64,000 nucleotides of DNA from a virus (taxonomy: Duplodnaviria; Heunggongvirae; Uroviricota; Caudoviricetes): IMG/VR virus record IMGVR_UViG_3300008259_000020, positions 34,991 through 98,990 of that record. One strand, 5' to 3'. Of the stretch, positions 28,421 through 64,000 are shown one piece after another. Made by a program: the position numbers and the translations under genes. Position 1 is the stretch's first letter, and the number at the start of each line of letters is the position of its first letter. The notes below the pieces were generated by a model. The model saw only the letters and a program-made list of their open reading frames with translations, searched no databases and had not been told where the DNA came from.

Positions 28421-28436
28421 GTATATTGGCGGAGCG

Positions 28437-28524: not shown

Positions 28525-28531
28525 CTCCTCG

Positions 28532-35790: not shown

Positions 35791-36213
35791 TTAATCATGG
35801 TCATAAGCCTTCAAAAAGTTTTCCATATACTTGCGAATGTTCTCTGCTCCTACGGGATTCATACTATGAACATGATATCCAAATCCCACAGGCAACCGTA
35901 GTTTGTTATCCATCACATGGTCACAAAACCATTTGGCAAAGGTGTAGCCAGTTTTCTCGCCTGTGTCTTTTTCGTAATGTTCGTCTGCCAAGTCATGGTC
36001 AAAACTGATCATAGTGGGCAAGCCATACTTTTCCACACACCAAACAGCATCATCCATGCTGCGGCAGATCACTACGTTTTTGTAAGGTCCGTAGTTGTAA
36101 CGCACATCACCGGGGAAGCGAATGTCATCTAAAAACAGTGTCCAGGTCATTTTACATTCCCATCCAAGCAGCACATTCATCCCAACGAACGTTGGTAGTG
36201 ATTGACTTTTCAA
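35791..36213 (-). CDS. hypothetical protein (140 aa)
   Basis: ORF immediately downstream of the RNA ligase. Confidence 0.35.
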   Translation of the reverse strand: MKSQSLPTFVGMNVLLGWECKMTWTLFLDDIRFPGDVRYNYGPYKNVVICRSMDDAVWCVEKYGLPTMISFDHDLADEHYEKDTGEKTGYTFAKWFCDHVMDNKLRLPVGFGYHVHSMNPVGAENIRKYMENFLKAYDHD

Positions 36214-37190: not shown

Positions 37191-37225
37191 CTACCCTAGT
37201 GTTATAGCACAAGGATAGGCAGTTG

Positions 37226-37744
37226 TCAATCACTGATTCTGTTGCCATACATGTCGTAGCAGCGAACAGCATCGAATCCTTCGTCAACAGTAGGGCGAAC
37301 AAAACTATCCATCATTGATTCAATTACATGATCAGGAATAGTTTTGCCTGGACGGCTAGCCATACGGTGCTGCCAATCTTCCCACTGGCTATCACCCGCT
37401 GGCAAGAGGATGCACTCGCACTCAACACGATAGCCAGCGTTACGCATACGATTAATGATCTTACGACGCTTGCCAACACCAAGGTTGGTCTGATCCCAGA
37501 TGACATCCTTACGAAGAGTAACTATCGAGTTCAACTTCCGTTCGTTGAACTCCGTCGCAGCCTTAATGTTTAAAGAAAACGCCTCGTTATAAGTGATGCC
37601 GTTGTCTTCAGCAACCGTATCGATATACATATCGGTGCTGTAGATCCAAGTGTCTTCAGAGATCATTCTCTGAATGAGAGTGCTCTTACCGGTAGCAGGC
37701 AACCCAACCATCACAGTACAAGTAGGCATGTTTTCTCCAATCAA
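37226..37744 (-). CDS. polynucleotide 5'-kinase (T4 Pnk N-terminal kinase-domain homolog, stand-alone)
   Basis: P-loop VMVGLPATGKSTL and DQTNLGVGKRRKIINRMRNAGYRV align with the T4 PseT kinase domain (GCPGSGKST ... SDTNLNPERR...). Confidence 0.65.
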   Translation of the reverse strand: MIGENMPTCTVMVGLPATGKSTLIQRMISEDTWIYSTDMYIDTVAEDNGITYNEAFSLNIKAATEFNERKLNSIVTLRKDVIWDQTNLGVGKRRKIINRMRNAGYRVECECILLPAGDSQWEDWQHRMASRPGKTIPDHVIESMMDSFVRPTVDEGFDAVRCYDMYGNRISD

Positions 37745-40551: not shown

Positions 40552-40627
40552 TGGAGCTCCCGGAAGGATTCGAACCCTCGACCACCACGTTCGAAGCGTG
40601 GCACTCTGACCGCTGAGTTACGGAAGC
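40552..40627 (-). tRNA. tRNA-Arg (UCG)
   Basis: Acceptor GCTTCCG/CGGGAGC, anticodon arm CCACG-CTTCGAA-CGTGG, T-arm GAGGGTTCGAATCCTTC, CCA. Confidence 0.8.
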
Positions 40628-40639
40628 GTAGTATTTATT

Positions 40640-40715
40640 TGGTGCCCCCGGCAGGAGTCGAACCCACAACCTAGGGAGTAGAAATCCCTTGCTCTTCCAG
40701 TTGAGCTACGAAGGC
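40640..40715 (-). tRNA. tRNA-Arg (UCU)
   Basis: Acceptor GCCTTCG/CGGGGGC, anticodon arm AGGGA-TTTCTAC-TCCCT, T-loop TTCGACT, CCA. Confidence 0.8.
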
Positions 40716-40736
40716 TAAATTTCTGACAACTGACAA

Positions 40737-40806
40737 AGTGCAAAGGGACTCGAACCCTTGTCTCCGACTCCACGCCGGCGTCCTATCCTCTAGACGATAC
40801 ACACGA
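40737..40806 (-). ncRNA. degenerate tRNA-like element (Glu-type D-arm, good T-arm, no acceptor pairing, no CCA)
   Basis: TCGTCTAGAGGATAGGACG D-arm (compare E. coli tRNA-Glu), T-arm AAGGGTTCGAGTCCCTT, no foldable anticodon stem and no 3' complement. Confidence 0.3.
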
Positions 40807-41081
40807 TCATTGCAGCACTTTTCTATATCTCGACAACGACATCGAAGTTACTGCAACAAAAGGTCAGTTGCCACGGTGGTTGCCGCCACCTATTCTTTAT
40901 CTCTTATTTATTTCTTGTGTATACTATACATGATCTTTTCACGCATGTCAACGCATATACAGCACCAGCAGCTTATATGTTTAGTTTTCTTGCCACGCAT
41001 GTTGACGTTTGCCGAGGCGGCGCGGTGGGGCGGGCCGATGATCTGCTGGAACAGTTTATCTCGAGAAACACTGAACTCAGC

Positions 41082-41600
41082 CTATTCTAATTCGTCTTCG
41101 AATGGGTATCTTCTCACTGCTAGCAATTTTCTAACAGGATATGCACTAAAGTTAACACTGTTATCTTGATTTCCACCAAGCACCAAATAGTATTCTTGAC
41201 CATTGTGATAGGTTGAAGTTACAAAGAATCCAACATGACCTTTCCAATTGGCATTGCCACGCTTAAACACAACAACATCACCTGATTCTGGTTCGTCTAC
41301 TTCTACGCCCCAATCAAGAAAACTTCTTGCCAGTAGAGGATGTTCTGCATATTCATCAGACCCAGGTAATCCAGTTTCTGCAAGCACTGCATTTACAAAT
41401 GCAGCACACCATTCAGTGGCAACTGGATCAACACCGATAAAATCTTTTATTTCTGCTCTATGACTCTTTTCACTCCACCCTAGTTTTTCTGTTGCAGCAA
41501 CCAATGGTTCTGGCGGTGTCGGTGAAGTAGTAAACAATTGAATTTTTGCACAAGCAGATACTGATAGTAACAGTACTGTTAGTAACATAGCCCTCATCAT
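41082..41600 (-). CDS. secreted CHAP/NlpC-P60-type cysteine peptidase (candidate endolysin or cell-wall hydrolase)
   Basis: Signal peptide MMRAMLLTVLLLSVSACA. Catalytic-type Cys in TEWCAAFVNAVL and His in GHVGFF. A TATAAATA late-promoter-like motif sits just upstream. Confidence 0.5.
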   Translation of the reverse strand: MMRAMLLTVLLLSVSACAKIQLFTTSPTPPEPLVAATEKLGWSEKSHRAEIKDFIGVDPVATEWCAAFVNAVLAETGLPGSDEYAEHPLLARSFLDWGVEVDEPESGDVVVFKRGNANWKGHVGFFVTSTYHNGQEYYLVLGGNQDNSVNFSAYPVRKLLAVRRYPFEDELE

Positions 41601-41648
41601 AAAAATATTTATAGAATAGGTCTAGATAGAAATAGTACAGTTTAACTT

Positions 41649-41724
41649 TGGCACTCCCGGCAGGACTCGAACCTGCAACAATCACCTTCGTAGGGTGGCG
41701 CTCTTCCAGTTGAGCTACGGAAGT
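41649..41724 (-). tRNA. tRNA-Arg (ACG)
   Basis: Acceptor ACTTCCG/CGGGAGT, loop CTACGAA, T-arm GCAGGTTCGAGTCCTGC, CCA. Confidence 0.75.
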
Positions 41725-41730
41725 ATCGTT

Positions 41731-41805
41731 TGGTACCGTGTATAGGATTTGAACCTATTCCGACGCAGTCACAGTGCGGTATGCTACCCTTACACCAAGC
41801 ACGGC
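41731..41805 (-). tRNA. tRNA-His (GUG)
   Basis: Loop CTGTGAC, T-arm ATAGGTTCAAATCCTAT, CCA. The acceptor has one terminal mismatch. Confidence 0.65.
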
Positions 41806-41812
41806 ATTATTC

Positions 41813-41887
41813 TGGTTGCCCCTACTAGATTTGAACTAGTGACCTATCCCTTATCAGGGGATTGCTCTACCACTGAGCTAAGAGGCA
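41813..41887 (-). tRNA. tRNA-Ile (GAU)
   Basis: Acceptor TGCCTCT/AGGGGCA, anticodon arm ATCCC-CTGATAA-GGGAT, T-arm ACTAGTTCAAATCTAGT, CCA. Confidence 0.8.
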
Positions 41888-41988
41888 ATATTCATTGTTT
41901 AGAAGATACACTGACCAATACCATTTCTGGTCCGATAGGTTTATTTTATGTGGCGGCCTAAATGCCACTCAGTGTATCATCAAACCAA

Positions 41989-42064
41989 TGGTGAACCGGG
42001 TGGGATTCGAACCCACGTACTCCGATTAAAAGTCGGGTGCTAAAACCACCTCAGCTACCGGTCC
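41989..42064 (-). tRNA. tRNA-Lys (UUU)
   Basis: Acceptor GGACCGG/CCGGTTC, loop CTTTTAA, T-arm GTGGGTTCGAATCCCAC, CCA. Confidence 0.75.
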
Positions 42065-42123
42065 ACGTTTCGTTTGTCGCTTTCTTCTTTGTTACGTTTT
42101 CGTTTCATTTTTGTTCCTTGAAT

Positions 42124-42201
42124 TGGTGTACCGGGTGGGAGTTGAACCCACGACCTTCGGATTAAGAGTCCGCGGCTCTAACCTGGCTGAGCTACCGGTG
42201 C
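42124..42201 (-). tRNA. tRNA-Lys (CUU)
   Basis: Anticodon arm GCGGA-CTCTTAA-TCCGA, T-arm GTGGGTTCAACTCCCAC, CCA, long D-loop. Confidence 0.75.
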
Positions 42202-42220
42202 ATTAATAGTTGTATGTTTG

Positions 42221-42664
42221 TTAGTTACACCACGACTGCTTTTTGTCGCCGTAGTATTCTCTAGCATAACCTTGTTCAATAAGCATCTGTGTTAGGCTCT
42301 TACCGTCGATAAGAACATCACCTAGCACTCTGCCGCCGAACTTGTCCCACTCATAAAATACAATTTGAGTAGTCTTGGCTTTTGCAACTAAATCTTTTGT
42401 AAATTTACTTGCAGCATCACCCATGTCGCCTTCTTTTTTACATTCTGCTCTGCCACCTTTTTCAGGTGTATCTACGCCCCATACACGAAGTGATAGTTTC
42501 TTCGGAAGTGGATCTAGCAAGAACTTTGCTTCAAATTCAACTGTATCACCATCTACTACACGTAGAATTTTTAAGTCGTGTGCTACACCAGTTGGCTTTT
42601 TTACTTCAGCAAATGCAGTGGATGCAGCAACAATCAGTGCTACAGTTAAAAGTATTTTTTTCAT
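42221..42664 (-). CDS. secreted staphylococcal-nuclease (SNase/thermonuclease) homolog
   Basis: Signal peptide MKKILLTVALIVAASTAFA. ILRVVDGDTVEF and RVWGVDTPEK match the SNase Ca-site and active-site boxes. Confidence 0.7.
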   Translation of the reverse strand: MKKILLTVALIVAASTAFAEVKKPTGVAHDLKILRVVDGDTVEFEAKFLLDPLPKKLSLRVWGVDTPEKGGRAECKKEGDMGDAASKFTKDLVAKAKTTQIVFYEWDKFGGRVLGDVLIDGKSLTQMLIEQGYAREYYGDKKQSWCN

Positions 42665-42709
42665 TATGTTCTCCTAAATACTAGAATATTTATAACAAAA
42701 AAACAATTA

Positions 42710-42785
<76 letters not shown>

Positions 42786-42791
42786 ATATTT

Positions 42792-42876
42792 TGGTGGGAG
42801 AGGAGGGAATCGAACCCGTCCGTGCGTTGCCGCGATGGAGTTACAGTCCACTGCCTCACCTTGAGGCGTCTCTCCC
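42792..42876 (-). tRNA. tRNA-Tyr (GUA), type II (bacterial-type long variable arm)
   Basis: Acceptor GGGAGAG/CTCTCCC, loop CTGTAAC, long variable arm, T-loop TTCGATT, CCA. Confidence 0.8.
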
Positions 42877-42882
42877 TTATTT

Positions 42883-42959
42883 TGGTAGGACATACGGGTT
42901 TCGAACCCGTTTCTCCGCCTTGAAAGGGCGGCGACCTTCGCCAAGAAGTCCAATGTCCC
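42883..42959 (-). tRNA. tRNA-Glu (UUC)
   Basis: Acceptor GGGACAT/ATGTCCT, anticodon arm CCGCC-CTTTCAA-GGCGG, T-arm ACGGGTTCGAAACCCGT, CCA. Confidence 0.8.
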
Positions 42960-42965
42960 ATAGTT

Positions 42966-43040
42966 TGGTGATGTAGGCTGGATTCGAACCAGCAACCTAC
43001 GGCGTATGAGACCGTTGCACTACCGTTGTGCTACCACATC
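42966..43040 (-). tRNA. tRNA with CAU anticodon (Met or Ile2/lysidine)
   Basis: Acceptor GATGTGG/CTACATC, anticodon arm ACGGT-CTCATAC-GCCGT, T-arm GCTGGTTCGAATCCAGC, CCA. Confidence 0.8.
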
Positions 43041-43046
43041 ATTGTT

Positions 43047-43130
43047 TGGAGGTCGGTATGTGAATCGAACACATTACTTTGCAGTGCTATGGAGTTGCAG
43101 TCCATCCCCTTACCATCCGGGCCACCGACC
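43047..43130 (-). tRNA. tRNA-Cys (GCA)-like with an atypical 14-nt extra (variable) region
   Basis: Perfect acceptor GGTCGGT/ACCGACC, anticodon arm ATGGA-CTGCAAC-TCCAT, then AGCACTGCAAAGTA before T-arm ATGTGTTCGATTCACAT, CCA. A long variable arm is not expected for Cys. Confidence 0.55.
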
Positions 43131-43849: not shown

Positions 43850-44977
43850 TTATACTACCTTTACTTCTAGAGGCGGAAAGCCGTTAAATGCTATAGTGCT
43901 GTATGTGCTTGTGTAAGCACCGCAACTGTTAATTACTAACACATCTCCACTCTCAATGTCAATTGGTAATTGTACTTTGTTTCTTTCATACATTACATCG
44001 GCACTATCACAGGTTGGACCAGCAAGTATACAAGGACCTGTTGGAGAATTTTCTTTGCCTAGCACAGTAAATTGATACTTGATTGCTTCGCCTTCTGTTT
44101 CTGCAAGACCACTAAATCTACCTACGTTTAGGTATACCCAACGAACCACATCCATTGATGACTTCTTACTTGCCAACAATACTTCTGAGGCAATGCAACC
44201 TGCGCTGCCTACTAAGCCGCGACCAGGTTCTACCATAATGTAGTTGGCTCCTGGAAACTGCTTACGAACACGATCCATTAGTTTTTTGCCGTATTCTTCA
44301 GGAGGTGTAATTTCTACACCGTAGTAGGCAGGAAAGCCTCCGCCGATGTTTACCAGTGTAAGTTCGTAACCGCACTGAGAGATTTCGTCCCAAAGATTAC
44401 CCATCAACTCTAGTGTGTCATACCACATCTCAGGATGTTTGGTTTGCGAACCAATGTGCCAACTGATACCAACTGGTTCAAGTCCTAGTTCTTTTGCATA
44501 GCCCATAAGGCCTAATGCCATAGCAGGATCACAACCGAACTTGCGTGACAGTGGCCATTCTGCTTCGGTTTGCCCAATCAGCACACGAATAAACACACGT
44601 GAGTTGGGTGCATGACGTGCAATTTTTTCCAGTTCTTCTTCAGCATCTGCAGAAAACAATGTAATATCGTTTCTGTATGCGTATTCGATATCTTGCCAAC
44701 GTTTTACAGTATTACCAAAACTAATGTGTTCTGGTTCTGCACCGGCAGCAAGACACATTTCAATCTCACCCATACTAGCAGCATCAAATCTACAACCTAG
44801 TTCGACAAGACGTTGTAGAATAGCAGGATGCGGATTGCTCTTTACTGCATAATGCACATGAGCATCTGGCATACCTGCTTTTAGGTTTAGATAATTTTCT
44901 TCTACAAGATCAATGTCAAGAATCAGTGTCGGACGTTCGAATGTATTGTTGCGAATGTACTGATAAATTGCGTCCAC
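43850..44977 (-). CDS. PLP-dependent Orn/Lys/Arg/DAP decarboxylase (alanine-racemase fold, group IV)
   Basis: HYAVKSNPHPAILQRLVELGCRFDAASMGEI (PLP-lysine box), EPGR in VEPGRGLVGSAG and GPTCDSADV (substrate-Cys box). Confidence 0.7.
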   Translation of the reverse strand: MDAIYQYIRNNTFERPTLILDIDLVEENYLNLKAGMPDAHVHYAVKSNPHPAILQRLVELGCRFDAASMGEIEMCLAAGAEPEHISFGNTVKRWQDIEYAYRNDITLFSADAEEELEKIARHAPNSRVFIRVLIGQTEAEWPLSRKFGCDPAMALGLMGYAKELGLEPVGISWHIGSQTKHPEMWYDTLELMGNLWDEISQCGYELTLVNIGGGFPAYYGVEITPPEEYGKKLMDRVRKQFPGANYIMVEPGRGLVGSAGCIASEVLLASKKSSMDVVRWVYLNVGRFSGLAETEGEAIKYQFTVLGKENSPTGPCILAGPTCDSADVMYERNKVQLPIDIESGDVLVINSCGAYTSTYSTIAFNGFPPLEVKVV

Positions 44978-49684: not shown

Positions 49685-49935
49685 CGTTTACCCTGATAAC
49701 GTAGATCAAAAATTTTATCTCTTACACGATTATTATACCAATTACGGTCTTGCTTGTCAAGCAGTGTAAGTAGATATTCAAGATCTTCGTCGCTTAACGC
49801 CACATCAACTGCGGATTCTGCTAACACAGTATAACCTCGGTTTTTTAATTCTTCCACTATTTCGTTGTCGTCGAACTCATCGAGATCTACGTCAACGTCT
49901 ACATATGTTTCAATTGTTTTAACAGCCATTTTCAA
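49681..49935 (-). CDS. small acidic protein (84 aa)
   Basis: ORF. Confidence 0.35.
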   Translation of the reverse strand: MKMAVKTIETYVDVDVDLDEFDDNEIVEELKNRGYTVLAESAVDVALSDEDLEYLLTLLDKQDRNWYNNRVRDKIFDLRYQGKR

Positions 49936-50554
49936 TTACCTTCTTTTTGATGGTTTTGTATAATCCTGGGTTTACTTTTAATGCGTGTGGCATTAGTTCA
50001 TGTCTAATATAGTTTCTTGTGTACTTGATATCCGCATTGCTAGGATCTTCAACATACGGTACCGTGTGCATATTAGACCACAAGGCAATATCACGTTTCA
50101 TATTTAATCTAAACGGACGGATAACGTTCTTTCTACGATACGGTACAATTTTACCAGTACCGTGCAGCGAACTAAAGATCCAAGTTTCCACGCAGTCATC
50201 CAAGTGATGTCCTGTAATCACAGGTGCGTCTGTAAATAGGTCCAAGAACTCGTAGCGTTTTTCTCGCCAAAATTCTTCATGACTCATATCTTTTGGCTTG
50301 TCTTCACGAATCTTACCGCCGATAAATTTGATATCGTTTTTAATACAGTAGTCATCAACAAAGTCTAGAGTGTACATAGAATTGCTGGTTCTATGATCAA
50401 AATGTAATACAGTTACATCATGATTGTTTTGTAGAAAATTTAAAATTGCCATACTATCAATGCCGCCGGAGCAGGCAAGATATACTTTGCGGGGGAGTTT
50501 GCCTTGGATCTTAATCATATTTTTTATTATAAGGCATAGACCGCAATTGGACAA
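49919..50554 (-). CDS. tilS: tRNA(Ile)-lysidine synthetase (TilS) catalytic-domain homolog (PP-loop ATPase)
   Basis: PP-loop LACSGGIDSMAIL, HHLDDCVETWIF (compare TilS HHxDDQAET), RPFRLNMKRDI and EDPSNADIKYTRNYIRHELMP (compare TilS D.SN.d....RN.IR..llP). Confidence 0.65.
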   Translation of the reverse strand: MSNCGLCLIIKNMIKIQGKLPRKVYLACSGGIDSMAILNFLQNNHDVTVLHFDHRTSNSMYTLDFVDDYCIKNDIKFIGGKIREDKPKDMSHEEFWREKRYEFLDLFTDAPVITGHHLDDCVETWIFSSLHGTGKIVPYRRKNVIRPFRLNMKRDIALWSNMHTVPYVEDPSNADIKYTRNYIRHELMPHALKVNPGLYKTIKKKVIENGC

Positions 50555-54787: not shown

Positions 54788-55003
54788 TTAAATTCTAAAC
54801 ATAATTCTGCCTTTGTCAAGATCGTATGGTGTCATTTCAATTTTAACACGATCACCTTGTACCAGGCGAATTTTGAACTGGCGCATTTTGCCTCCAGTAT
54901 AACAGGTTACTCTATGCCCGTTTTCTAATTCAACACGAAATGTTTGATTGGGCAGTACCTCTATGATACTGCCTTCTAATTCTAATATATCTTCTTTAGC
55001 CAT
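54788..55003 (-). CDS. infA: translation initiation factor IF-1
   Basis: [71 protein letters not shown] is collinear with E. coli IF-1 ([69 protein letters not shown]). Confidence 0.85.
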
Positions 55004-55603: not shown

Positions 55604-55882
55604 ATGGATTTTTTATCACTTGTTGGCGAAGTAGGCTTTCCTATAGCCGGGGCATTAGCAGCCGGGGGATTTGTTTTCTTAACACTAAAGTTTATTCTAG
55701 CAGGAGTAACTGGAAGTGTTACAACTCTAAAGAATATTATTGCACAACTGGATAACCGTGTGCAAACTATGAATAATGATTTAGTTAAAATTGATGCATT
55801 ATTGAGTTATGCATTGAGTGTTAAGCCTAACATAGATCGTATTGCTGCAAACGAAGGTAAAAATGATGCGAGACGTGACTAA
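55604..55882 (+). CDS. single-pass membrane / coiled-coil protein, paralog A
   Basis: GFPIAGALAAGGFVFLTLKFILAGV TM segment, then a coiled coil. Paralog of the next gene (shared GFPI..A..G.FVF and L..RV..M.ND). Confidence 0.45.
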   Translation: MDFLSLVGEVGFPIAGALAAGGFVFLTLKFILAGVTGSVTTLKNIIAQLDNRVQTMNNDLVKIDALLSYALSVKPNIDRIAANEGKNDARRD

Positions 55883-56226
55883 TGGAATTTGACATAGCAG
55901 GTGCAATTAAAGACTTTGGATTTCCTATCATTGCAGCAATGGGCATGGGCTACTTTGTTTTCTTTATATGGAAATGGGTAACCGAAGAAATTGATCCAGT
56001 TGTTGGCGAAACAATGGGTACATTGATTAAACTTGTTGATCGTGTACGCATGTTAGACAACGACATGATACGTCTAAACAGCAAACTAACAATGGTATTA
56101 GAATATCGCCAGCACCTAGATATGTTACCACAGGATAAAAAAGATGATCTTGATGAAATAATCAACAAGTATCAAAGTCGAAGTCAAGTGTTCAACAGCA
56201 CTGGCAGAGAAGATAAAAAAAAATAA
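55882..56226 (+). CDS. single-pass membrane / coiled-coil protein, paralog B
   Basis: DFGFPIIAAMGMGYFVFFIWKWV TM segment, then LVDRVRMLDNDMIRLNSKL; ATGA-coupled to paralog A. Confidence 0.45.
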   Translation: MEFDIAGAIKDFGFPIIAAMGMGYFVFFIWKWVTEEIDPVVGETMGTLIKLVDRVRMLDNDMIRLNSKLTMVLEYRQHLDMLPQDKKDDLDEIINKYQSRSQVFNSTGREDKKK

Positions 56227-56243: not shown

Positions 56244-56579
56244 ATGGCAAGAACACCAAGAACACCAAAAACACTACAAGAAGACAGTCAGTTCAACAAG
56301 TTTGACACAGACGGCGACGGAGTTGTTTCCGACGACGAACTTGCAAAAGCAGAACGTATTGTTGACTTAGAAAACAAGGATCAAAAAGAAGACCAACTTA
56401 GAAGAATGGCATGGGTAGCCATGTTAAGTATGGTTGTCTTTACAGTACTATTGTTTTTACCTTTTATTGGAATTGAAAGATTGGCAGCATTGGATAATAT
56501 CCTAAGCATGTTCTACATTGCACAAGCAGGCGTAGTAGCATCATTCTTCGGATCCAGTGCTTATATGAGTCGTTCATAA
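56244..56579 (+). CDS. EF-hand calcium-binding membrane protein
   Basis: DTDGDGVVSDDE is a canonical 12-residue EF-hand loop (D1, D3, D5, G6, E12), followed by two TM segments. Confidence 0.5.
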   Translation: MARTPRTPKTLQEDSQFNKFDTDGDGVVSDDELAKAERIVDLENKDQKEDQLRRMAWVAMLSMVVFTVLLFLPFIGIERLAALDNILSMFYIAQAGVVASFFGSSAYMSRS

Positions 56580-56600: not shown

Positions 56601-56640
56601 AACAAGGAGCCTGTGGGCTCCTTGTCTGCTTTTTTATTTT
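56601..56640 (+). terminator. rho-independent terminator
   Basis: CAAGGAGCCtgtgGGCTCCTTG followed by tctgcttttttatttt. Confidence 0.7.
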
Positions 56641-56688: not shown

Positions 56689-56928
56689 ATGATTTGGATA
56701 GATTATAATATAACTCAAGCCGGCGGCAATTTTAGAGTCGAAGGTGAATGGCCTGGAGAAGTTATGGGGCTCGACAGACAGGGCAATCCCGGAAACAAGA
56801 AACGTCCGTTGTATCAACCCGGTGATGTTTTTATAGTTAACAAGGATGGGTGGCTTGTTAAACAAGAAGAATTGACATCACTGATGTTAACATATGAGAG
56901 TAAAAAATCTACTTTGTCAGGGCAATAA
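56689..56928 (+). CDS. hypothetical protein (79 aa)
   Basis: ORF after the terminator; its end overlaps the convergent cyclase gene. Confidence 0.3.
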   Translation: MIWIDYNITQAGGNFRVEGEWPGEVMGLDRQGNPGNKKRPLYQPGDVFIVNKDGWLVKQEELTSLMLTYESKKSTLSGQ

Positions 56929-58951
56929 ACACGCCATTCCAATCTGCTGGCAATGTTTGCGTTTTCATGTATTCACAACGTTCAATCCACATATCGTAGT
57001 ATTTTTCCATTTTGCCGTCAAATGCTCTGCGAATTAAATTACACTGTTCTATTGCTTCATCAAACTGTTTCATACGATATAGTTTGTGCATTTGATCATG
57101 ATGTTTTTTACTGGTTTTCCATGTTGGTTTAACATCGTCTAATACAGTATAGATAGCAACACCTACAGTTTTACCTTTAACTGCTAAGTCATCTACTTTG
57201 AGGAAGAAGAATTCGTCTTTGCACTGTTCTACTGTAGCGCCACCCACGAGTAATAAGCAGCCGTATTCTTTACATTTTGATTCGATTCTTGCGGCGGTGC
57301 TGACTGCGTCTCCAAGTACGTCGTAACTGTGACGTTTGGTTGACCCCATTTCTCCGATGTATCCGAGACCTGTGTTGATTCCGGCGCCCATGCCAACTGG
57401 TGGTCTTCCTTGGGGTATGATGACTGTTTCATTAAAATTCTCTACTGCTCGTAACATTTTTAAACCAGTAGCAACTGCTGTCTTTGCATGTTCAGGATCG
57501 TCTACTGGTGCATTGTGTATATGCATACTTGCATCACCGATATATTTAATAATCATACCGTTTGCATCTAGCACAGGCTGTGTGATAGCATCCATGTATC
57601 CATTCATTATTTTAGTAAGTCCTGCAACATCGTCGCCGAAACTTTCACCTAATGGTGTAAAGCCACGTAAATCGCTAAACAGTATGCTTACTTCTTTCTT
57701 CATGCCTTTCTTGACAAGATCTGGGTTTGTTTGCAATAACTTAACTACGGCAGGTGATGCATATCCTTCGAACTGTTTCTTGATTGCTTGCTTTTGTAAG
57801 AACTCACTTACAAATTTGATTACATAACGTATAATACCTACAAGCAATAGAAACGCCGCAGGTAAAAATCCATCAATCAAGAAGTTGTAGGTAGCAAAGG
57901 CATAGATGCTACCACCGATTGACCCACCTACAAGTATTACAAAAATGCCAATGCCCGCATAAGTCCAACGTGCAGCAACTATTAGTGCTAATCCGGCAAG
58001 TACAAATGCTAATAATTCGGCACCTGGTGACCATGCAGGGCGTTCTATGTTACTTGCATTAAACACTGTGCCTAACATCATAGCCTGTAGTTCATGTGGC
58101 CACACGCCGCCTTTGGCTGTTGCAATTGGTTGTGTAATGCCAGCCGCAGTAGGACCTACAAATACTATACCTCCGGCAAAGTCTGCAGGTAGTTCTGCTG
58201 CACTGTGACTGCTAAAGCCTTGACTCCAGTCTAACCATACTCTACCAAGTCCATCAGTTTGTAGTACACCGTATTGCGGAATTCGTAATTTGTCAACTCC
58301 CAACGGTGATAATTTGATTTGGAAACTAGGATCCCCTGCTAGAACTCTAAGCACTTCCATAGTAACGTTAGGGTATAGTATTCCTCCACTTTCTAGTACT
58401 AGCGGAGCACGTCTGACAACTCCATCAATTTCTGGAAAGGTATTGATAATTCCTGACCCAACTGCTGCATTTTCAATGGCAGGCACGTTTGCTGTGATGC
58501 CAGGCACGGCAGGGATAAGATCAATAAAGTCACTATTAATGATACTAGCACCAGGGTTGATTGGTTCATTTTTATTTTCCTCAGTTCCTAACATTGTAAC
58601 TACAACAGGATAATTACCCATAGTAGTTGATAGTATCCTGTCTTGTCCTGCTCTGTCTGTTTCGCTCATCAACACGTTAAACACAACTAGTCCTGCGCCA
58701 CGTGCATATAGATCCTCTATTAGTTTAGCATAATCGCCTCTTGGCCAAGGCCACTGACCGCGAGCAGTAATACTTGCTTCATCTATATTAACTGTATAAA
58801 TGTTATTTTCTACAGGTGCTTGATTTACTATCAACTGATCAAAATATCGTAAACGTAGACTTTCCAAAAAATCAGGGTTACTGAACTGTAACCAGCCCAA
58901 CAACCCTAAAATTACAATGCTCCAAACAGGTGATAATAACAGTTTTTTCAC
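56909..58951 (-). CDS. CHASE2 sensor-domain class III adenylate/guanylate cyclase
   Basis: N-terminal signal/TM, then a periplasmic CHASE2-like region, three TM segments, then the cyclase core ILFSDLRGFTPLGESFGDD...IKYIGDASM...GINTGLGYIGEMGS...VLGDAVSTAARIES (metal-binding Asp and transition-state residues in the canonical CHD arrangement). Confidence 0.7.
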   Translation of the reverse strand: MKKLLLSPVWSIVILGLLGWLQFSNPDFLESLRLRYFDQLIVNQAPVENNIYTVNIDEASITARGQWPWPRGDYAKLIEDLYARGAGLVVFNVLMSETDRAGQDRILSTTMGNYPVVVTMLGTEENKNEPINPGASIINSDFIDLIPAVPGITANVPAIENAAVGSGIINTFPEIDGVVRRAPLVLESGGILYPNVTMEVLRVLAGDPSFQIKLSPLGVDKLRIPQYGVLQTDGLGRVWLDWSQGFSSHSAAELPADFAGGIVFVGPTAAGITQPIATAKGGVWPHELQAMMLGTVFNASNIERPAWSPGAELLAFVLAGLALIVAARWTYAGIGIFVILVGGSIGGSIYAFATYNFLIDGFLPAAFLLLVGIIRYVIKFVSEFLQKQAIKKQFEGYASPAVVKLLQTNPDLVKKGMKKEVSILFSDLRGFTPLGESFGDDVAGLTKIMNGYMDAITQPVLDANGMIIKYIGDASMHIHNAPVDDPEHAKTAVATGLKMLRAVENFNETVIIPQGRPPVGMGAGINTGLGYIGEMGSTKRHSYDVLGDAVSTAARIESKCKEYGCLLLVGGATVEQCKDEFFFLKVDDLAVKGKTVGVAIYTVLDDVKPTWKTSKKHHDQMHKLYRMKQFDEAIEQCNLIRRAFDGKMEKYYDMWIERCEYMKTQTLPADWNGVFIALTK

Positions 58952-59199
58952 AATTTTTTTCCTAACAGTTTTGCTTTTAGTGCATCCATTTCTTGAGATT
59001 TATTTTTTACCGGGTGTTTTTCTTCCGCCACCACATACTGGGATTGTGCTTTAGAATTTTTATAGGGTTCTTGGTCCCATCCATTGCGGCTTCTAATAGC
59101 GGCGATGCGGGCCTGAATTTCAGCAACTCTAACAGAGATTTCTGATGCTCCGGGGTTTTCATTTGCTTCTTTCAAGAATAGATTTCTAAACCAGTTCAT
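58948..59199 (-). CDS. small hypothetical protein (83 aa)
   Basis: ATGA-coupled to the cyclase; TATAAA-rich late-promoter-like sequence upstream. Confidence 0.35.
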   Translation of the reverse strand: MNWFRNLFLKEANENPGASEISVRVAEIQARIAAIRSRNGWDQEPYKNSKAQSQYVVAEEKHPVKNKSQEMDALKAKLLGKKL

Positions 59200-59285
59200 T
59201 TAGTATATTTATTTTATAAACTCTATAATTTTAAATTATAGTTAGTTAGAAAGATAGGCTCCGAAGAGCCTATCTTGTTTTTACA

Positions 59286-61295
59286 TTAGAACTTTAGTGA
59301 AAGACCAGCACTGATTGATGTGCTGCTTGATGTTTCTGTTCCAAACTGTGTTGCTGAAACATTTACATTTGCTTTTCCTATGTCTTTGTTAACGCCAATC
59401 CCTAGCTTTGTGCTACCATCAGTGTTATAAATTGCACTCAAATTTACCAATCCTACATCTACGTCAGCACCAATAGTTGCATAGCCGTAGGTTTCTTCAG
59501 AACCGGTGTTGACCAGTTTGGCTTGTATGCTTCCTATTTCGCCATACCCATCAGTTGATTTTTTGCCAACAGTATACCCTAATATTGGATGTACAACATT
59601 TGTATTTGGACGTAGTTCAATGCTTGCCCAATTATCAGTTGCCGATGTTAATCCGTGTGCAGAAAAGTATGGACTAAAAAGTACACAGCAAGGACCAATA
59701 GTTCTACTGTACGCTAGATCAGTTGACGCAGTGTTAGCAGTACCGGTGATTGTAAATTTTTCCATTTCTTTGCCAACTGTTATACCAATTTTAGTTGTTC
59801 TTGACGCACCAGTTGAATTGTTACCTGACAACTCCGATGACATGCTAACAAGGCCGCCGCCTATTATTAAACCACTGTCAGTTGTGGTATTTACACCTAG
59901 TGAGAAGTACTGTGTATCAGCAGTGTATCCGGTGTCTGTTTCACTGCTGATGCGTCCGGCGTTAACACCAGAACCGAATCCAATGTTATGTGCTAGATTT
60001 AGGTCTAACATTGCATTTATTTGGTCCATACGTCCTATAAATGGTAGAGGGAAAGTAATTGCTGTAGTGATGTCATTGCGTAATACTGTTGTGACTGTTG
60101 GTGTTCCATCTGTTACAACAACACTGCTGTCACTGTAAGTATCTGTAGTACGCACAAATGATGTGGTAGTTACATCAACTGGTGTTGTTGTAGTTGTTGT
60201 GGTTTCACGAGCAATTGTTTGCACGCCATCTGCTACACTGCTGTCGTGTGTTGTAATACTTGCTGTTAGCACAGGAAGTGTTGTACTCGGTGCTTCGGTT
60301 GTTGAAGTTATTGTAGCAGTTGTAGTAGAAGTAATAGTAGGTGTGCCGCCACCGCTTGCTGCATCAGTTGCACTTCCCACGTCGGTTAGTGTCCATCCAG
60401 TTGGTAACACGCCGGGTGTTCCGCCGCCAGCACCACCGTCAATTGCAGAATCTGCTGCATCAAACGCACTTGGTCCAAATATATAAGCATAACTTGCTGT
60501 GAGAATATCGCCTGCGCTAACACTTAACCAATTCCACGAAAGACCAATTGTATCATCTGCATTACAATATAGTACGCCTGCGCCGCAAGATGCATCTGCA
60601 TTTATGTATGAATCTGCTTCTGAGCTCCAACTGTTGATGCCTGCTGCTACGTTTGTATCTGTTGAATATAAACCTAGTGCATAACGTGAAACAGTTGCTT
60701 CGCTGAATGCAACGTTAGTTGATGGGATACCTGAGTAACCTAATACGTTGTCTGTGCTTGAGCTATCGCCGGCCATACCTTGGCTATCCGGATCGATAAA
60801 TTTACCAAACCAAACACTTGATGCTGCACTACCAGCAACAATTGTTGTTGTCACATCAACAAATGATGCAGTTGTACCCAATGTAAATGTATTTGTAACA
60901 TTCCATGTTGAACTGCCAAATGCTCTATCGCCGCTCCATGTTAACGTGTTAGTACCGTCAGTTAATCCGTCTGCATCAACAAATGATGTAGAACCGGTAT
61001 TGTTGTTTGCAGCATTGACGCCGTCAACCTTAAGAGAGAATCCGTCAAACGGTGCTCCTGGTGTTAGATAATCAAAGCCAGCGTTGAATGTTCCTGTTCC
61101 AGTTGGATCGAATAGTAGGCCAGGACTGGTTCCGCCACCGCTTCCAAATGTACCGGAGTTTTTGTTTACACCAGCCTTAACCCAATTATTTTCAAGTACA
61201 CCCATGCTGGATGTGCCATTAATGCTACTGGTATCAGCAAATGCTGTTGTGCTTAGTAAAAGAGCCAGCACAGTGCCCCCTATTATTCGTCTCAT
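59286..61295 (-). CDS. large secreted Thr/Ser/Gly-rich protein with a C-terminal outer-membrane beta-barrel signature (terminal Phe)
   Basis: Signal peptide MRRIIGGTVLALLLSTTAFA, poly-Thr linker TTTTTTTPVDVTTT, C-terminal alternating hydrophobic pattern ending ...SAGLSLKF. Confidence 0.45.
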   Translation of the reverse strand: MRRIIGGTVLALLLSTTAFADTSSINGTSSMGVLENNWVKAGVNKNSGTFGSGGGTSPGLLFDPTGTGTFNAGFDYLTPGAPFDGFSLKVDGVNAANNNTGSTSFVDADGLTDGTNTLTWSGDRAFGSSTWNVTNTFTLGTTASFVDVTTTIVAGSAASSVWFGKFIDPDSQGMAGDSSSTDNVLGYSGIPSTNVAFSEATVSRYALGLYSTDTNVAAGINSWSSEADSYINADASCGAGVLYCNADDTIGLSWNWLSVSAGDILTASYAYIFGPSAFDAADSAIDGGAGGGTPGVLPTGWTLTDVGSATDAASGGGTPTITSTTTATITSTTEAPSTTLPVLTASITTHDSSVADGVQTIARETTTTTTTPVDVTTTSFVRTTDTYSDSSVVVTDGTPTVTTVLRNDITTAITFPLPFIGRMDQINAMLDLNLAHNIGFGSGVNAGRISSETDTGYTADTQYFSLGVNTTTDSGLIIGGGLVSMSSELSGNNSTGASRTTKIGITVGKEMEKFTITGTANTASTDLAYSRTIGPCCVLFSPYFSAHGLTSATDNWASIELRPNTNVVHPILGYTVGKKSTDGYGEIGSIQAKLVNTGSEETYGYATIGADVDVGLVNLSAIYNTDGSTKLGIGVNKDIGKANVNVSATQFGTETSSSTSISAGLSLKF

Positions 61296-61323: not shown

Positions 61324-61674
61324 TTATTTAAGTTGTAGTTCTATTCCTAAAACCACGCCTATATTAGTTTCGTCGTTGTTTTTTTCAAAACCTGGCGCAA
61401 CAAAAAATCTTGCCTTTCCCATATCGTAAGTGCCTCTAGCATACGGAGTAATTGCACCAAGTTCTTCATAGCCTGTTGCTATAGTAAACTCGATACCTGT
61501 TTTTTCAGTTGGTTCTAGTCTATAACCTCCGTAAAGACTAATCCTTTCTTCGCTGTTGTAGTATGCGCCTGCGATAAAATTATTTTCTTGTAATCTTAAA
61601 TGCGGATGTAGACTATTGTAATCTCCCTCCATTCCTAAATGACTGCTTAATGCCATTGCCCATATTAAATCCAT
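61324..61674 (-). CDS. hypothetical protein (116 aa) in the curli-like cluster
   Basis: ORF between the FecR-like and large OM proteins; possible accessory factor. Confidence 0.3.
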   Translation of the reverse strand: MDLIWAMALSSHLGMEGDYNSLHPHLRLQENNFIAGAYYNSEERISLYGGYRLEPTEKTGIEFTIATGYEELGAITPYARGTYDMGKARFFVAPGFEKNNDETNIGVVLGIELQLK

Positions 61675-61677: not shown

Positions 61678-62772
61678 TTACTCCTGTTGATTGATATTAA
61701 TTGTATTATTTCCTACACCTATCCTATATCCGTATATACTAAATCCATTTTGAACCACACCCAGTGTATACCCATATCCTTGACTTAACATTAAATCAAT
61801 CATATGAGAATTTTCGCTTCTTCTAAAAATATTATTAGGCGGAACCTCGTCATAAAATATTCCTGTTTCAGGATCCAATCCTAAAAACTTTTCTTCAAAA
61901 AACGCAGTATTTTGTGTGTCTAGTTCGCTTAATAACTTTTGCATCACTTCTTTCATCACTGCTGTCAGTTGATCTACAAACACTTCGTTGAGATATGTGT
62001 TTGTATCCAAGTCTGTTACCCATATATTTTTAATACCCTCCACAAGCGGATCCTTGTCTAATTCATCAAAAGCCAAAAAGTCTATGTCTAGTAAATCAAC
62101 TGCTGGCTGTGCATCTTCTGCTGCTTCGTCATAAGGATCAACTCGTCTAACAATCAGCATACTACGAAGCATGTCTTCGGGCAGTTCTAATATTACAGGT
62201 GGTTTAGGTACCATACCGTTATGAGCAACCACTGTGGTCTGAAAGGCTTGATTCATTATAACTATACCTTCGTCTGTTTCAACAGTTATTTCGCCAACCA
62301 CGCACATGCCAGCAGTGTTGCAACTTGGCAACAGTGTAACCATACTGCCGCCGATTTCGTCTACAATCATCATAAAGTCTGTTCCACGTACACCGATAGT
62401 TGCACTTGGTGTTTCGATATTAACATTTTGTCTGCTGTTCTTAGCAATAGCGCCACTGGCATAACGAACAGCACCTAGCGTTGCTCGCATACTCAATTCA
62501 CCAGTACCACTGTTAGGATCATACACAAACTCATCAATGACCATGCGGCTGTGTTCAGTAACATCAACACGAGTATCGTCCGCAAACTGTAATTGCATAC
62601 GACCGTTGGCAGTAGCAATTGTATCTTGCATTTCGAGTCCTACACCTTGTTCTCCGAGTATCTCTGTGGACTCACGCTTAACAATACCACTGCCATCGAT
62701 GGTTGCTATTTCGCCTACATTGGCATATGCGGTATTAGCTATCAACAGCAATGGTATAATATATTTCAGCAT
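61678..62772 (-). CDS. periplasmic FecR-domain protein with a C-terminal curlin-like motif
   Basis: Signal peptide MLKYIIPLLLIANTAYA. FecR-type beta-sandwich pattern GEIATIDGSGIVKRE...MQDTIATANGRMQLQFADDTRVDVTEHSRMVID. C-terminus VQNGFSIYGYRIGVGNNTININQQE. Confidence 0.4.
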   Translation of the reverse strand: MLKYIIPLLLIANTAYANVGEIATIDGSGIVKRESTEILGEQGVGLEMQDTIATANGRMQLQFADDTRVDVTEHSRMVIDEFVYDPNSGTGELSMRATLGAVRYASGAIAKNSRQNVNIETPSATIGVRGTDFMMIVDEIGGSMVTLLPSCNTAGMCVVGEITVETDEGIVIMNQAFQTTVVAHNGMVPKPPVILELPEDMLRSMLIVRRVDPYDEAAEDAQPAVDLLDIDFLAFDELDKDPLVEGIKNIWVTDLDTNTYLNEVFVDQLTAVMKEVMQKLLSELDTQNTAFFEEKFLGLDPETGIFYDEVPPNNIFRRSENSHMIDLMLSQGYGYTLGVVQNGFSIYGYRIGVGNNTININQQE

Positions 62773-63464
62773 TAATCAGTCTGTGTAATTGTTACAGTCC
62801 CGTCGTTGGCCGTTGATGTTACATTAACGGTCTTGTCCGTTAATCCGCTTTGTGTTATGTTGATATTATTTCCGCCACCTGTTAAATCATAGGTAATACT
62901 GTGTCCGTTTACACCGCCTGCATCATCTTGATCTATGGTAACAGTGTTGCCGCTGGCTGCTAAACTATTGTCAATGGTAAATGTAACATCAGCATTGGTT
63001 GCATCCAAGTTGGCTAAAATAACGTTGCCGTCGCCGTCGATGGTAAATTCTGCTACAAGGTTATCTGTAACTTTATTTTCACCAATATATACGCTAAAGT
63101 CGTTGCTGTTTCCATTAACTGTAATGTCAACTGTTACAATTTCGCAGTTTGCGCCGTTTGTTATATCGCAGGTTAAATCAACTGTGTTGCTGTCCCCGTT
63201 GAATATCCAGTCACCTGTATATGTATTGCCCTTAATAGTTGCTGCTATAACGTTATAATCGCCGTTTTGTGTAATATCAAATGTCATATCATCACCTGAA
63301 AGCAAGGCAGGTGCAGTTGTTGACAGGTCGCCGATCTTGTTGCCAGAACCGGTTTGACTAACAGTCAATGCAAGGTTGTCCCCTATTTGTTGTATGTAGA
63401 TTTCGTTAGCCAAGGCCGCAGAACTAACTAGTACAAACAAGGCCCCTATTATTATTTTTTTCAT
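62772..63464 (-). CDS. curlin-repeat (CsgA/CsgB-like) secreted beta-solenoid protein
   Basis: Signal peptide MKKIIIGALFVLVSSAALA. IQQIGDNLALTVSQTGSGNKIG fits the curlin repeat Q-x-G-x-x-N-x-A-x-x-x-Q-x-G-x-G-N, followed by many NG.(N/S)N..(I/V).(Q/D) repeats. Confidence 0.5.
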   Translation of the reverse strand: MKKIIIGALFVLVSSAALANEIYIQQIGDNLALTVSQTGSGNKIGDLSTTAPALLSGDDMTFDITQNGDYNVIAATIKGNTYTGDWIFNGDSNTVDLTCDITNGANCEIVTVDITVNGNSNDFSVYIGENKVTDNLVAEFTIDGDGNVILANLDATNADVTFTIDNSLAASGNTVTIDQDDAGGVNGHSITYDLTGGGNNINITQSGLTDKTVNVTSTANDGTVTITQTD

Positions 63465-63476: not shown

Positions 63477-64000
63477 TCATTTAAAACTCCACAGCTCTCT
63501 ACGAGCTCCTTCGTATATTAGTTCTATTATTCCTGCCTCTATTGCTGCCCTCACAGCATAGTTGGTAGGTTCGTTGACACTAAATCCACTCTCGATTTCC
63601 AGTGCCTTGGTGCTCATGTCTAAGAACTTAAATACATCTGCACCAGTTTTGTGACTAGCTATAGTTTTCTCAGTAGCCACACTTATTAGCACTCTTCCTG
63701 TGCTAACACTTACTAAACGCATTGCAACTGTTACAGTATCTACTCTGTACTCCGATCCTGCGCCTATTCCAAAGTAACGTGCTCCGGTTCCTCCTGTTGC
63801 TACGTTACTGTCATATCCCACTATTCCGCCTTCTAGTATCAACCCTGCAAATTGCATAGGATTCAATGGATCAGGATTGTCTAAATAATTTTCTCTTGTT
63901 TGACGTATAAGTTGACGTTCTGCAATTACATTGTCCATGCCTACACGTTCTACAACTTCAAACCAACTGCCGTTGCCTACCTGCATCAGTGCATCTATTA
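63477..64000 (-). CDS. csgG: CsgG-family curli secretion channel lipoprotein, partial (N-terminus beyond the right edge)
   Basis: EGGIVGYDSNVATGGTGARYFGIGAGSEYRVDTVTVAMRLVSVSTGRVLISVATEKTI...NEPTNYAVRAAIEAGIIELIYEGARRELW is collinear with E. coli CsgG EGSIIGYESNVKSGGVGARYFGIGADTQYQLDQIAVNLRVVNVSTGEILSSVNTSKTI...NEPVMLCLMSAIETGVIFLINDGIDRGLW. Confidence 0.8.
   Translation of the reverse strand, partial: IDALMQVGNGSWFEVVERVGMDNVIAERQLIRQTRENYLDNPDPLNPMQFAGLILEGGIVGYDSNVATGGTGARYFGIGAGSEYRVDTVTVAMRLVSVSTGRVLISVATEKTIASHKTGADVFKFLDMSTKALEIESGFSVNEPTNYAVRAAIEAGIIELIYEGARRELWSFK

Follow-up and report, generated by a model that had tools for sequence, protein, structure and literature searches.

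What does a transmembrane cyclase do at the end of a block of curli-like genes in a marine phage, and can it still make a cyclic nucleotide with a serine at the position of the canonical transition-state asparagine? The question is raised by a 64,000-nucleotide stretch of the IMG/VR record IMGVR_UViG_3300008259_000020 (positions 34,991 to 98,990), analysed as a whole and called the window below, in which the minus strand encodes a 680-residue protein with a CHASE2 sensor domain and a class III cyclase domain. The gene closes an envelope module, and its product is, with reasonable probability, a class III adenylate cyclase of the receptor type with gated synthesis of cyclic AMP (cAMP). The presence of FecR and an adenylate cyclase in the curli clusters of pelagiphages has been published (Wittmers et al. 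2022, mSystems, PMC9599517), and the core of the finding is therefore known. New relative to that work are the CHASE2 identity of the protein, its catalytic residues, the recognition of FecR and the CHASE2 cyclase as a pre-existing cellular pair, and a bacterial contig that carries the complete block. A coupled change at two active-site positions (Asp544/Ser551), present in most of these phages, is previously unreported.

Domain architecture and membrane topology

The gene and the parts of its product are as follows.

56909..58951, minus strand: gene for the CHASE2-class III cyclase, 680 residues (open reading frame (ORF) list, codon check, Pfam, PHROG)
58886..58942, minus strand: transmembrane helix 1, residues 4-22 (Kyte-Doolittle peak 1.83)
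57986..58909, minus strand: CHASE2 domain match, residues 15-322 (Pfam PF05226)
57830..58027, minus strand: three-helix membrane anchor, residues ~309-374 (three hydropathy peaks of 2.0-2.1)
57167..57706, minus strand: class III cyclase catalytic domain, residues 416-595 (Pfam PF00211; alignments to 2w01, 3r5g and 1wc0)
56912..57151, minus strand: C-terminal helical tail, residues 601-680 (match ranges and helices of the AlphaFold2 model)

The ORF runs from a GTG start codon at 58949-58951 to a TAG stop at 56909-56911, exactly where an earlier sequence-only reading of the window had placed a 680-residue cyclase. That reading had also described a signal or transmembrane segment, a CHASE2-like region and a three-helix anchor, all of which are borne out by hydropathy and by Pfam. 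The CHASE2 match (PF05226) has an E value of 1.6e-37 and 129.9 bits over profile positions 4-254 of 257, and the Guanylate_cyc match (PF00211) an E value of 1.1e-17 and 64.6 bits; both lie above the curated Pfam cut-offs, which are 26.3 and 21.9 bits, respectively. One transmembrane helix, CHASE2, three transmembrane helices and an output domain is the order expected of the CHASE2 sensor family, and hydropathy prediction finds the same order here. With one helix on one side and three on the other, the ~285 residues between them (about residues 23-308) are predicted to be periplasmic and the cyclase domain cytoplasmic, and the Lys2-Lys3 pair ahead of the first helix suggests an N-terminus facing the cytoplasm. 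A conserved helical linker, KQAIKKQF...YASPAVV, directly precedes the catalytic domain, for which sequence matches to cyclase domains in the PDB reach E 1e-22. The whole protein is matched end to end by phrog_35576 (E 1.1e-179), a PHROG family without assigned function, and NCBIfam has no model for it. The C-terminal helical tail is missing in Pelagibacter phage HTVC008M and present in many cellular relatives.

Active-site residues and the Asp544/Ser551 state

Residue roles were assigned by alignment to Spirulina CyaC (1wc0), Pseudomonas aeruginosa CyaB (3r5g) and Synechocystis Cya2 (2w01), and conservation was counted over 65 distinct phage sequences of 34-100% identity.

57671..57673, minus strand: metal-binding Asp427, aligned to the FSD Asp of CyaC, CyaB and Cya2; 65/65
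57545..57547, minus strand: substrate-specifying Lys469; Lys in 65/65
57533..57535, minus strand: metal-binding Asp473, from the alignment; 65/65
57320..57322, minus strand: second substrate position, Asp544; 64/65, derived from the Thr/Ser of cellular relatives
57299..57301, minus strand: Ser551, at the canonical transition-state Asn position; Ser in 64/65, derived and clade-fixed
57287..57289, minus strand: transition-state Arg555; 65/65

The motifs FSDLRGFT, YIGD and LGDAVSTAARIES, on which the sequence-only reading had based a complete class III catalytic domain, are all present in the protein. Lys469 pairs with the Lys of 'DKFVGD' in CyaC and with the Glu of 'DEFMGD' in the guanylyl cyclase Cya2. 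Together, Lys469 and Asp544 form the canonical ATP-specifying pair of class IIIa, so that the substrate-specifying residues, which that reading had left to be inspected after alignment, are of the ATP type; ATP is the predicted substrate and cAMP probably the product. The claim of completeness stands for both metal-binding Asp residues, the Lys, Asp544 and the Arg, and fails for the transition-state Asn, which is replaced by Ser551 in LGDAVSTAARIES, where the canonical motif is GxxVNxAAR. The sequence-only reading had itself named a missing transition-state Asn as a sign against a cyclase, and in a strict sense the alignment returns that sign. We do not count the loss as refuting catalysis, because the other five catalytic residues are invariant (Asp544 differing only in HTVC008M), because no part of the protein is more constrained than the cyclase domain, because Ser551 is kept through both AGY and TCN codons, and because Rv1900c, an active cyclase without this Asn, still makes cAMP (PMC4886424). 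Since Asn-less active cyclases are known, the missing residue lowers the standing of the protein as a canonical member of class III, not as a cyclase.

The replacement has a clear evolutionary pattern. When 162 loci were aligned to the family profile, every one of the 83 sequences in the clade of the window, which includes Methylophilales phage Melnitz, had the active-site signature D-K-D-D-S-R. HTVC008M-like and other basal phage-type sequences had D-K-D-(T/S)-N-R, as did 69 of 71 cellular relatives from a scan of species-representative genomes; the D/S state was found in none of the 71, and the cellular relatives sampled carry Asn at the position equivalent to 551. Among the 65 phage sequences, HTVC008M alone retains Asn at 551, and it also differs at Asp544. 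A Thr or Ser at the second substrate position is the mark of class IIIb cyclases, which are often bicarbonate-responsive; the window enzyme, with Asp544, does not bear it. In a neighbour-joining tree the D/S sequences form one lineage nested within the phage-type clade. When about 15 billion proteins, reduced to representatives at 50% identity, were searched, the state was present in only 8 of the 150 nearest, all of them among the higher-ranking matches where checked, and single-change intermediates (D544 or S551 alone) did not occur among the 150.

The gene is under strong constraint. The median pairwise ratio of nonsynonymous to synonymous substitution rates (dN/dS; 73 pairs) was 0.097 for the whole gene, 0.093 for CHASE2 and 0.056 for the cyclase domain, whose mean identity is 77% as against 54-69% elsewhere in the protein. 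Ser551 is encoded by AGY in 47 and by TCN in 31 sequences, codon families whose interconversion needs two nucleotide changes. Strong purifying selection and the use of both serine codon families indicate that the Asp544/Ser551 state is not decay. Judged from these patterns, the change from Thr/Ser to Asp at 544 together with that from Asn to Ser at 551 probably tunes catalysis and does not abolish it.

The same observations could be read as a change in chemistry, with a neofunctionalised Asp544/Ser551 clade that makes another cyclic nucleoside monophosphate (cNMP), uses another ribose substrate or has lost a class IIIb-type regulation. The double change is coupled, derived and monophyletic, with no cellular counterpart and no single-change intermediates, and Ser551 has been held across two codon families at a position that contacts the ribose in canonical enzymes; PycC models of PADLOC also match the domain (E 8.9e-16). 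Set against this, Lys469 and Asp544 are exactly the canonical adenine-specifying pair of class IIIa, the product of Rv1900c is still cAMP, and the PycC matches reflect the fold only, score below the Pfam cyclase model and have no Pycsar-type effector nearby. We therefore regard a changed chemistry as unlikely, if the best placed of the alternatives, and retain an adenylate cyclase with a retuned active site as the preferred reading.

The curli/FecR block and its cellular relatives

The cyclase closes a block of envelope genes on one strand, in the order CsgF, CsgG, curlin-like protein, FecR, variable genes and cyclase. Within the window the block comprises the following genes.

63477..64000, minus strand: CsgG, C-terminal ~170 residues (Pfam E 2.1e-41); the gene is cut by the window end
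62772..63464, minus strand: curlin-like repeat protein, 230 residues, with signal peptide and QxGxxN-type repeats
61678..62772, minus strand: FecR-domain protein, 364 residues, with signal peptide (Pfam FecR E 2e-10; phrog_37870 E 3.7e-97)
61324..61674, minus strand: p116, small beta-rich protein, found in 34 of 82 loci
59286..61295, minus strand: p669, with signal peptide, a linker of 33% Thr and a C-terminal domain with an invariant final Phe; 23 of 82 loci
58948..59199, minus strand: p83, small soluble protein with homologues in 7 of 82 loci

The full CsgG, with CsgF ahead of it, is found on an identical contig (L163). The curlin-like protein matches Curlin_rpt at E 0.0049, under the Pfam cut-off, and is homologous to Melnitz genes annotated 'curlin associated repeat protein'. 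The proximity of the cyclase to a curli-like module, pointed out in the sequence-only reading, is thus real, conserved and already in the literature. In 42 distinct viral loci the sequence extends 8.5 kb or more upstream of the cyclase. CsgF, CsgG, FecR and cyclase follow each other in this order on one strand in 37 of them, with a curlin-like gene within the stretch; four of the remainder differ only in having no CsgF in range, and one is inverted. The interval between FecR and cyclase is variable in phages, both in length (361-5351 nucleotides) and in content, with a second curlin-like gene in Melnitz and HTVC008M and with p116, p669 and p83 in the window.

Outside phages, a scan of one genome per species gave full-length homologues with the same domain order and 26-31% identity, mostly from Alphaproteobacteria (Ruegeria, Roseibium/Labrenzia, Tagaea and Azospirillum-like groups). 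Of 62 cellular loci, 31 have a FecR gene in the same orientation at a distance of -3 to 223 bp ahead of the cyclase, and another 7 have one nearby; FecR is by a wide margin the most frequent Pfam family next to the cellular CHASE2 cyclases. From this recurrent linkage, the FecR-domain protein is likely the periplasmic partner of CHASE2. CsgG was not among the neighbours in the 62 loci, with the exception of a Caulobacteraceae metagenome-assembled genome contig of 57.6% GC (CANGEH010000001.1, L085), on which a block at 5998..12055 comprises CsgF and CsgG, a pair of curlin-like genes, FecR, and a CHASE2 cyclase whose active site is of the ancestral T/N type. Around this block lie genes for a TonB-dependent receptor, an S9 peptidase and glycosyltransferases, and no flanking ORF resembles genes of the phage loci; the complete module therefore exists in at least one bacterium. 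Other apparent bacterial occurrences did not hold. Three 'genome' hits (L084, L087 and L100) were rejected since their flanks match phage loci, which marks them as mis-binned phage contigs, and five more that were first taken as bacterial (L083, L086 and L088-L090) are short contigs with mostly phage-type neighbours or uninformative flanks. By its sequence affinities, the module is of alphaproteobacterial origin.

The variable genes add further envelope candidates. The p669 protein had no Pfam, PHROG or PDB match (the best profile match to a PDB sequence, a coronavirus protease, had E 0.15), and its signal peptide, Thr-rich linker and conserved C-terminus are those of a putative outer-membrane or surface protein. 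Weak resemblance links p116 to the C-terminal part of a PagP-like outer-membrane PHROG (phrog_3600, E 7.8e-8). The TGA stop of p83 and the GTG start of the cyclase overlap as GTGA. A search for tandem repeats in the curlin-like and p669 genes returned just one trivial 12-nucleotide array.

Three small genes lie on the opposite strand, beyond the 3' end of the cyclase, with a fourth that reaches into it.

55604..56226, plus strand: p92 and p114, paralogous single-transmembrane proteins (phrog_18771)
56244..56579, plus strand: 111-residue membrane protein with a weak EF-hand-like motif (below Pfam cut-offs), downstream of the cyclase
56689..56928, plus strand: 79-residue gene product, converging on the cyclase and overlapping its final 20 nucleotides

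The p92 and p114 proteins share a nearly invariant helix, DRVRMLDNDLIRLN, and accompany the module in 72-74 of 82 loci. Their place is ahead of CsgF in some loci and, in others such as the window, downstream and convergent. They are probably the genes labelled 'histidine kinase' by Wittmers et al., to judge from their position. If that label was meant for them, it is not supported by their predicted products, which at 92-114 residues have no HisKA or HATPase match, no kinase domain and no invariant His; a profile search with the family gave no significant PDB match either (best E 0.1, the Vipp1/PspA coiled coil). The gene for the 111-residue protein is followed by a terminator-like hairpin (56602..56625). 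Between the window and a related phage locus (L040) its product is 98% identical but the cyclase only 70%, a contrast suggestive of recombination near the cyclase gene. Homologues of the 79-residue gene occur in about 50 phage loci, where they mostly travel with p92/p114. Just past the right end of the window, contig L163 (1..4013) carries ClpS, heme oxygenase and Fe_bilin_red upstream of CsgF; the heme oxygenase and the ferredoxin-dependent bilin reductase make up a bilin-synthesis pair beside the envelope module.

Expression signals and the timing of lysis

Two candidate signals lie between p669 and the cyclase.

59206..59212, minus strand: ATAAATA box 13 nucleotides ahead of p83; both p83 and the cyclase may be transcribed from it as a T4-type late promoter
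59251..59276, minus strand: stable hairpin with an 11-bp stem, a UUCG loop and no clear U-tract, directly 3' of the p669 stop

In T4-type late promoters the core sequence is ATAAATA. Of its 19 copies in the window, 11 stand 8-60 nucleotides upstream of gene starts on the same strand, where 0.7 would be expected. Enrichment is seen 11-29 nucleotides before start codons, for example at the genes 2115..2678, 6300..7034, 7065..8360 and 58948..59199. A box is present within 450 nucleotides upstream of the cyclase in 34 of 68 distinct phage regions, against a background of 0.085 per 450 nucleotides, and within 50 nucleotides in 13 of the 68, Melnitz included. From this distribution we infer late transcription of the cyclase from an ATAAATA-type promoter. 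Other candidates were discarded: copies of the exact T4 late promoter, TATAAATA, number 5, no more than chance would give, and none is near the module, and a sigma-70 promoter scan found 26 sites against 26 expected from shuffled sequence.

Late expression would also suit a periplasmic sensor that serves lysis timing or the response to superinfection, as an analogue of T4 lysis inhibition, instead of regulating curli fibres. This view is compatible with the mechanism preferred here. The late-promoter-like box directly upstream, the linkage of the small single-transmembrane, coiled-coil p92/p114 proteins and the role of this kind proposed for the CsgGF pore by Buchholz et al. all speak for it. 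Its support is purely circumstantial, p92/p114 match no recognisable holin or antiholin family, and the Caulobacteraceae contig has the same block without a phage context; as the function of the cyclase we find it improbable. A wider proposal, in which neofunctionalised Asp544/Ser551 enzymes, with a product or kinetics unlike those of any cellular CHASE2 cyclase, join FecR and the outer-membrane proteins in a late trans-envelope sensor that adjusts lysis or fibres by a cyclic nucleotide, is put forward tentatively and seems to us unlikely as a whole.

The search for a receptor and the weight of the evidence

The sequence-only reading had suggested that the enzyme may rewire second-messenger signalling of the host, for example through CRP, may feed or blind cyclic-nucleotide defence, and may be part of a regulated unit for remodelling the surface. 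A cAMP receptor was looked for with Pfam searches of 69 ORFs of the window and a CRP-seeded jackhmmer search over 14,000 ORFs from all loci, and neither the window nor any phage-type locus yielded one. About 19 cellular loci have a CRP-family gene close to the cyclase; in the Tagaea group the two genes are immediate neighbours. The PycC match raised the possibility of a Pycsar system, which was rejected: the match covers the shared fold only, and a cNMP-binding effector was not found in the window or the phage loci.

Cyclic-nucleotide defence systems do use related cyclase folds, and the gene is widespread and abundant among marine phages, so that counter-defence or takeover independent of the envelope module could be envisaged, with the enzyme flooding or mimicking cyclic-nucleotide immune signals or draining ATP. 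A soluble, constitutive enzyme would suffice for either task. The phage protein instead keeps a full extracytoplasmic sensor under purifying selection and remains linked to FecR, as in the non-phage cellular loci, and we found no evidence of Pycsar or CBASS systems in the host groups; we think this role quite improbable. A catalytically dead pseudo-cyclase, acting as membrane scaffold or periplasmic sensor for the curli/FecR module without nucleotide signalling, would explain the lost Asn and the lack of a cNMP receptor near the gene in phages, and is most unlikely given that the cyclase domain is the most constrained region and that the metal Asp pair, Lys and Arg are invariant, with Asp544 differing only in HTVC008M, which is unexpected for a relic site.

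A gated adenylate cyclase thus remains the preferred reading, and the following points weigh against it. A change from Asn to Ser in mammalian adenylate cyclase cuts kcat about 30-100 fold, and with the canonical Asn missing the activity could be low or altered. The AlphaFold2 model of the cyclase, built from an alignment of 28 sequences that are 75-100% identical, is too poor for checking the geometry (mean predicted local distance difference test (pLDDT) score 51.5, predicted template modelling (pTM) score 0.33), with confidence only for three helices at residues 609-662. The late promoter is assigned by motif only. Neither the 64-kb window nor the flanks (up to 10 kb) of about 90 phage-type loci yielded a cNMP-binding or CRP protein, and we found no sign that streamlined hosts (SAR11, OM43) use cAMP, the literature on Pelagibacter cAMP signalling having given nothing usable. 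A related contig (L164, from GCA_031546225.1; 1..4187) retains p669, p83 and the cyclase without CsgFG or FecR; it is identical to the window from within p116 on, and unrelated genes replace CsgF, CsgG, the curlin-like gene and FecR, an arrangement that is either a natural variant or an assembly chimera. Finally, the FecR-domain gene smc02177 of Sinorhizobium meliloti is dispensable for signal perception.

A model for the phage cyclase

The combined results suggest a model in which a module common to marine T4-like myophages of the HTVC008M/Melnitz type, and derived from Alphaproteobacteria, would equip the infected cell with a receptor of the phage's own. Late in infection, transcription from an ATAAATA-type promoter of the phage would supply the cyclase, and the protein would insert into the host inner membrane with its homodimer-type catalytic domain in the cytoplasm. 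CHASE2, together with the periplasmic FecR protein and with the CsgG/F pore, the curlin-like fibres, p669 and p116, may report the state of the envelope or of the extracellular surroundings, and the sensed state would control the conversion of ATP to 3',5'-cAMP. The cAMP might then act on a receptor encoded away from the module. The parts that we infer are cAMP as the product, the cooperation of FecR with CHASE2, expression late in infection, what is sensed and what lies downstream. The mechanism is proposed by analogy with the CHASE2 cyclases of S. meliloti (CyaD1, CyaD2 and CyaK), which are the best experimental analogues.

Few marine viruses are as abundant as the phages of SAR11- and OM43-type bacteria, and the gene family is common to match, with thousands of metagenome proteins. 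If a membrane-spanning receptor of the phage converts a cue from outside or from the envelope into a second messenger, sensing owned by the phage would steer the infected cell, beyond the metabolism genes that phages carry. A neofunctionalised sensor, if there is one, would read neighbouring cells, superinfecting phage or the state of the envelope, in hosts for which a described cAMP pathway was not found. The published cluster is also reframed, in that FecR fits best as the periplasmic partner of a CHASE2 sensor and not as an iron regulator, in that a bacterium has the whole block, and in that a coupled active-site change is fixed in the dominant myophage clade.

Phage background and other genes of the window

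The window belongs to a T4-like marine myophage. The phage origin is evident from two T4 gp9/gp10-type baseplate domains and an 1862-residue tail-fibre protein (PHROG); further genes include a DNA ligase, ClpP, an RNA-repair set, 30 tRNA genes and a GOLLD RNA, almost all genes lying on one strand. This cyclase is carried by 186 confirmed IMG/VR viral contigs, and 11 metagenome contigs encode the identical protein. A megablast comparison of a 24-kb part of the window with 50,697 phage records gave only tRNA-sized matches and no cultured phage that is close at the DNA level. At the protein level, the best cultured matches, both full length, are those of Melnitz (48.6%) and HTVC008M (34.4%), which are T4-like marine myophages (Kyanoviridae) in which the gene is annotated as an adenylate/guanylate cyclase. 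Some related IMG/VR contigs reach 220-330 kb, and the phage may therefore be much larger than Melnitz.

The 30 tRNA genes, a number far above expectation for a 140-kb pelagimyophage, are all on the minus strand at 23926..28597 and 40552..43130 and cover most amino acids. The GOLLD RNA (Rfam RF02032; 25070..25531, minus strand; 191.7 bits against a gathering threshold of 150) lies inside the tRNA cluster and has a tRNA-Ser (25395..25468) embedded within it. Between both tRNA clusters lies the RNA-repair set (35791..37744, minus strand), with a cREC_REC receiver (35791..36213), a T4 Rnl1-type RNA ligase (36152..37006) and a P-loop kinase (37226..37744). The 35.8-55.4 kb region of the window also encodes a PNKP-type phosphatase domain. 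Other genes on the minus strand encode a homologue of IF-1 (54788..55003; eIF-1a family, E 4.9e-23), which is near the module in 18 of 82 loci, a TilS-like PP-loop protein (49919..50554; ATP_bind_3, E 3.3e-31), an ornithine/arginine decarboxylase (43850..44977), ClpP (19753..20370), the UV endonuclease UvdE (15857..16927) and a B12-binding radical SAM protein (3..1358), which continues past the window start.

Comparison with known systems

The gene has been annotated as a cyclase in the records of HTVC008M (AGE60353.1; Zhao et al. 2013) and Melnitz (QZI94833.1), and phage curli genes have been discussed without mention of the cyclase (Zaragoza-Solas et al. 2020; Buchholz et al. 2022). Wittmers et al. 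(2022; PMC9599517) described the cluster in podo- and myo-pelagiphages as histidine kinase, CsgF, CsgG, CsgA/B, FecR, in some cases a further CsgA/B, and adenylate cyclase; they found its genes in marine metatranscriptomes and in all 65 ocean virome stations analysed, grouped phage CsgG, CsgF, FecR and adenylate cyclase with alphaproteobacterial versions, read FecR as an iron regulator, and placed FecR and adenylate cyclase outside bacterial curli operons. The window carries the same gene family with the cyclase likewise at the cluster end, and the alphaproteobacterial affinity found here agrees with their trees. It differs in having p116, p669 and p83, not a second curlin-like gene, between FecR and cyclase, and in the position of p92/p114, which are downstream and convergent and not upstream of CsgF. 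The Caulobacteraceae contig suggests that their statement on bacterial curli operons does not hold throughout.

Among solved structures, the best matches are CyaC (1wc0), CyaB (3r5g) and Cya2 (2w01), at E 3e-18 to 7e-20. The metal-binding Asp and the Lys/Arg positions align, whereas the three enzymes have other sensor or regulatory domains and all keep the transition-state Asn; CyaC and CyaB have a Thr-type residue at the position of Asp544, and Cya2 has Glu for the Lys. The cellular pairs of FecR and CHASE2 cyclase in marine and freshwater Alphaproteobacteria (Ruegeria, Tagaea and others), together with the Caulobacteraceae contig, have full-length homologues of 26-36% identity with the same domain order. 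In these, FecR abuts the cyclase, whereas phages have an insert between the two, and nearly all show D-K-D-(T/S)-N-R, many with a CRP-like gene nearby, as opposed to D-K-D-D-S-R in the window. A biofilm-tied pairing of FecR and CHASE2 is likewise found in the 'BiofilmReg' operon of Burkholderia (PMC5192318), which consists of a response regulator, a LysM-FecR protein and a CHASE2 histidine kinase; unlike the window, this betaproteobacterial system has a histidine-kinase output and no curli secretion gene.

The best experimental parallel is offered by CyaD1, CyaD2 and CyaK of S. meliloti, which are alphaproteobacterial and are described with the same architecture of CHASE2 and class III cyclase. 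S. meliloti has a linked CRP-family receptor, Clr (SMc02175), and no curli link, whereas such a receptor was not found in the phage loci or the window. The locus tag of cyaD1 (SMc02176) adjoins that of the FecR-domain gene smc02177. In this system an extracellular protein cue, received via the outer-membrane barrel NsrA, raises cAMP, and a CyaD1 construct from which CHASE2 had been deleted made cAMP constitutively.

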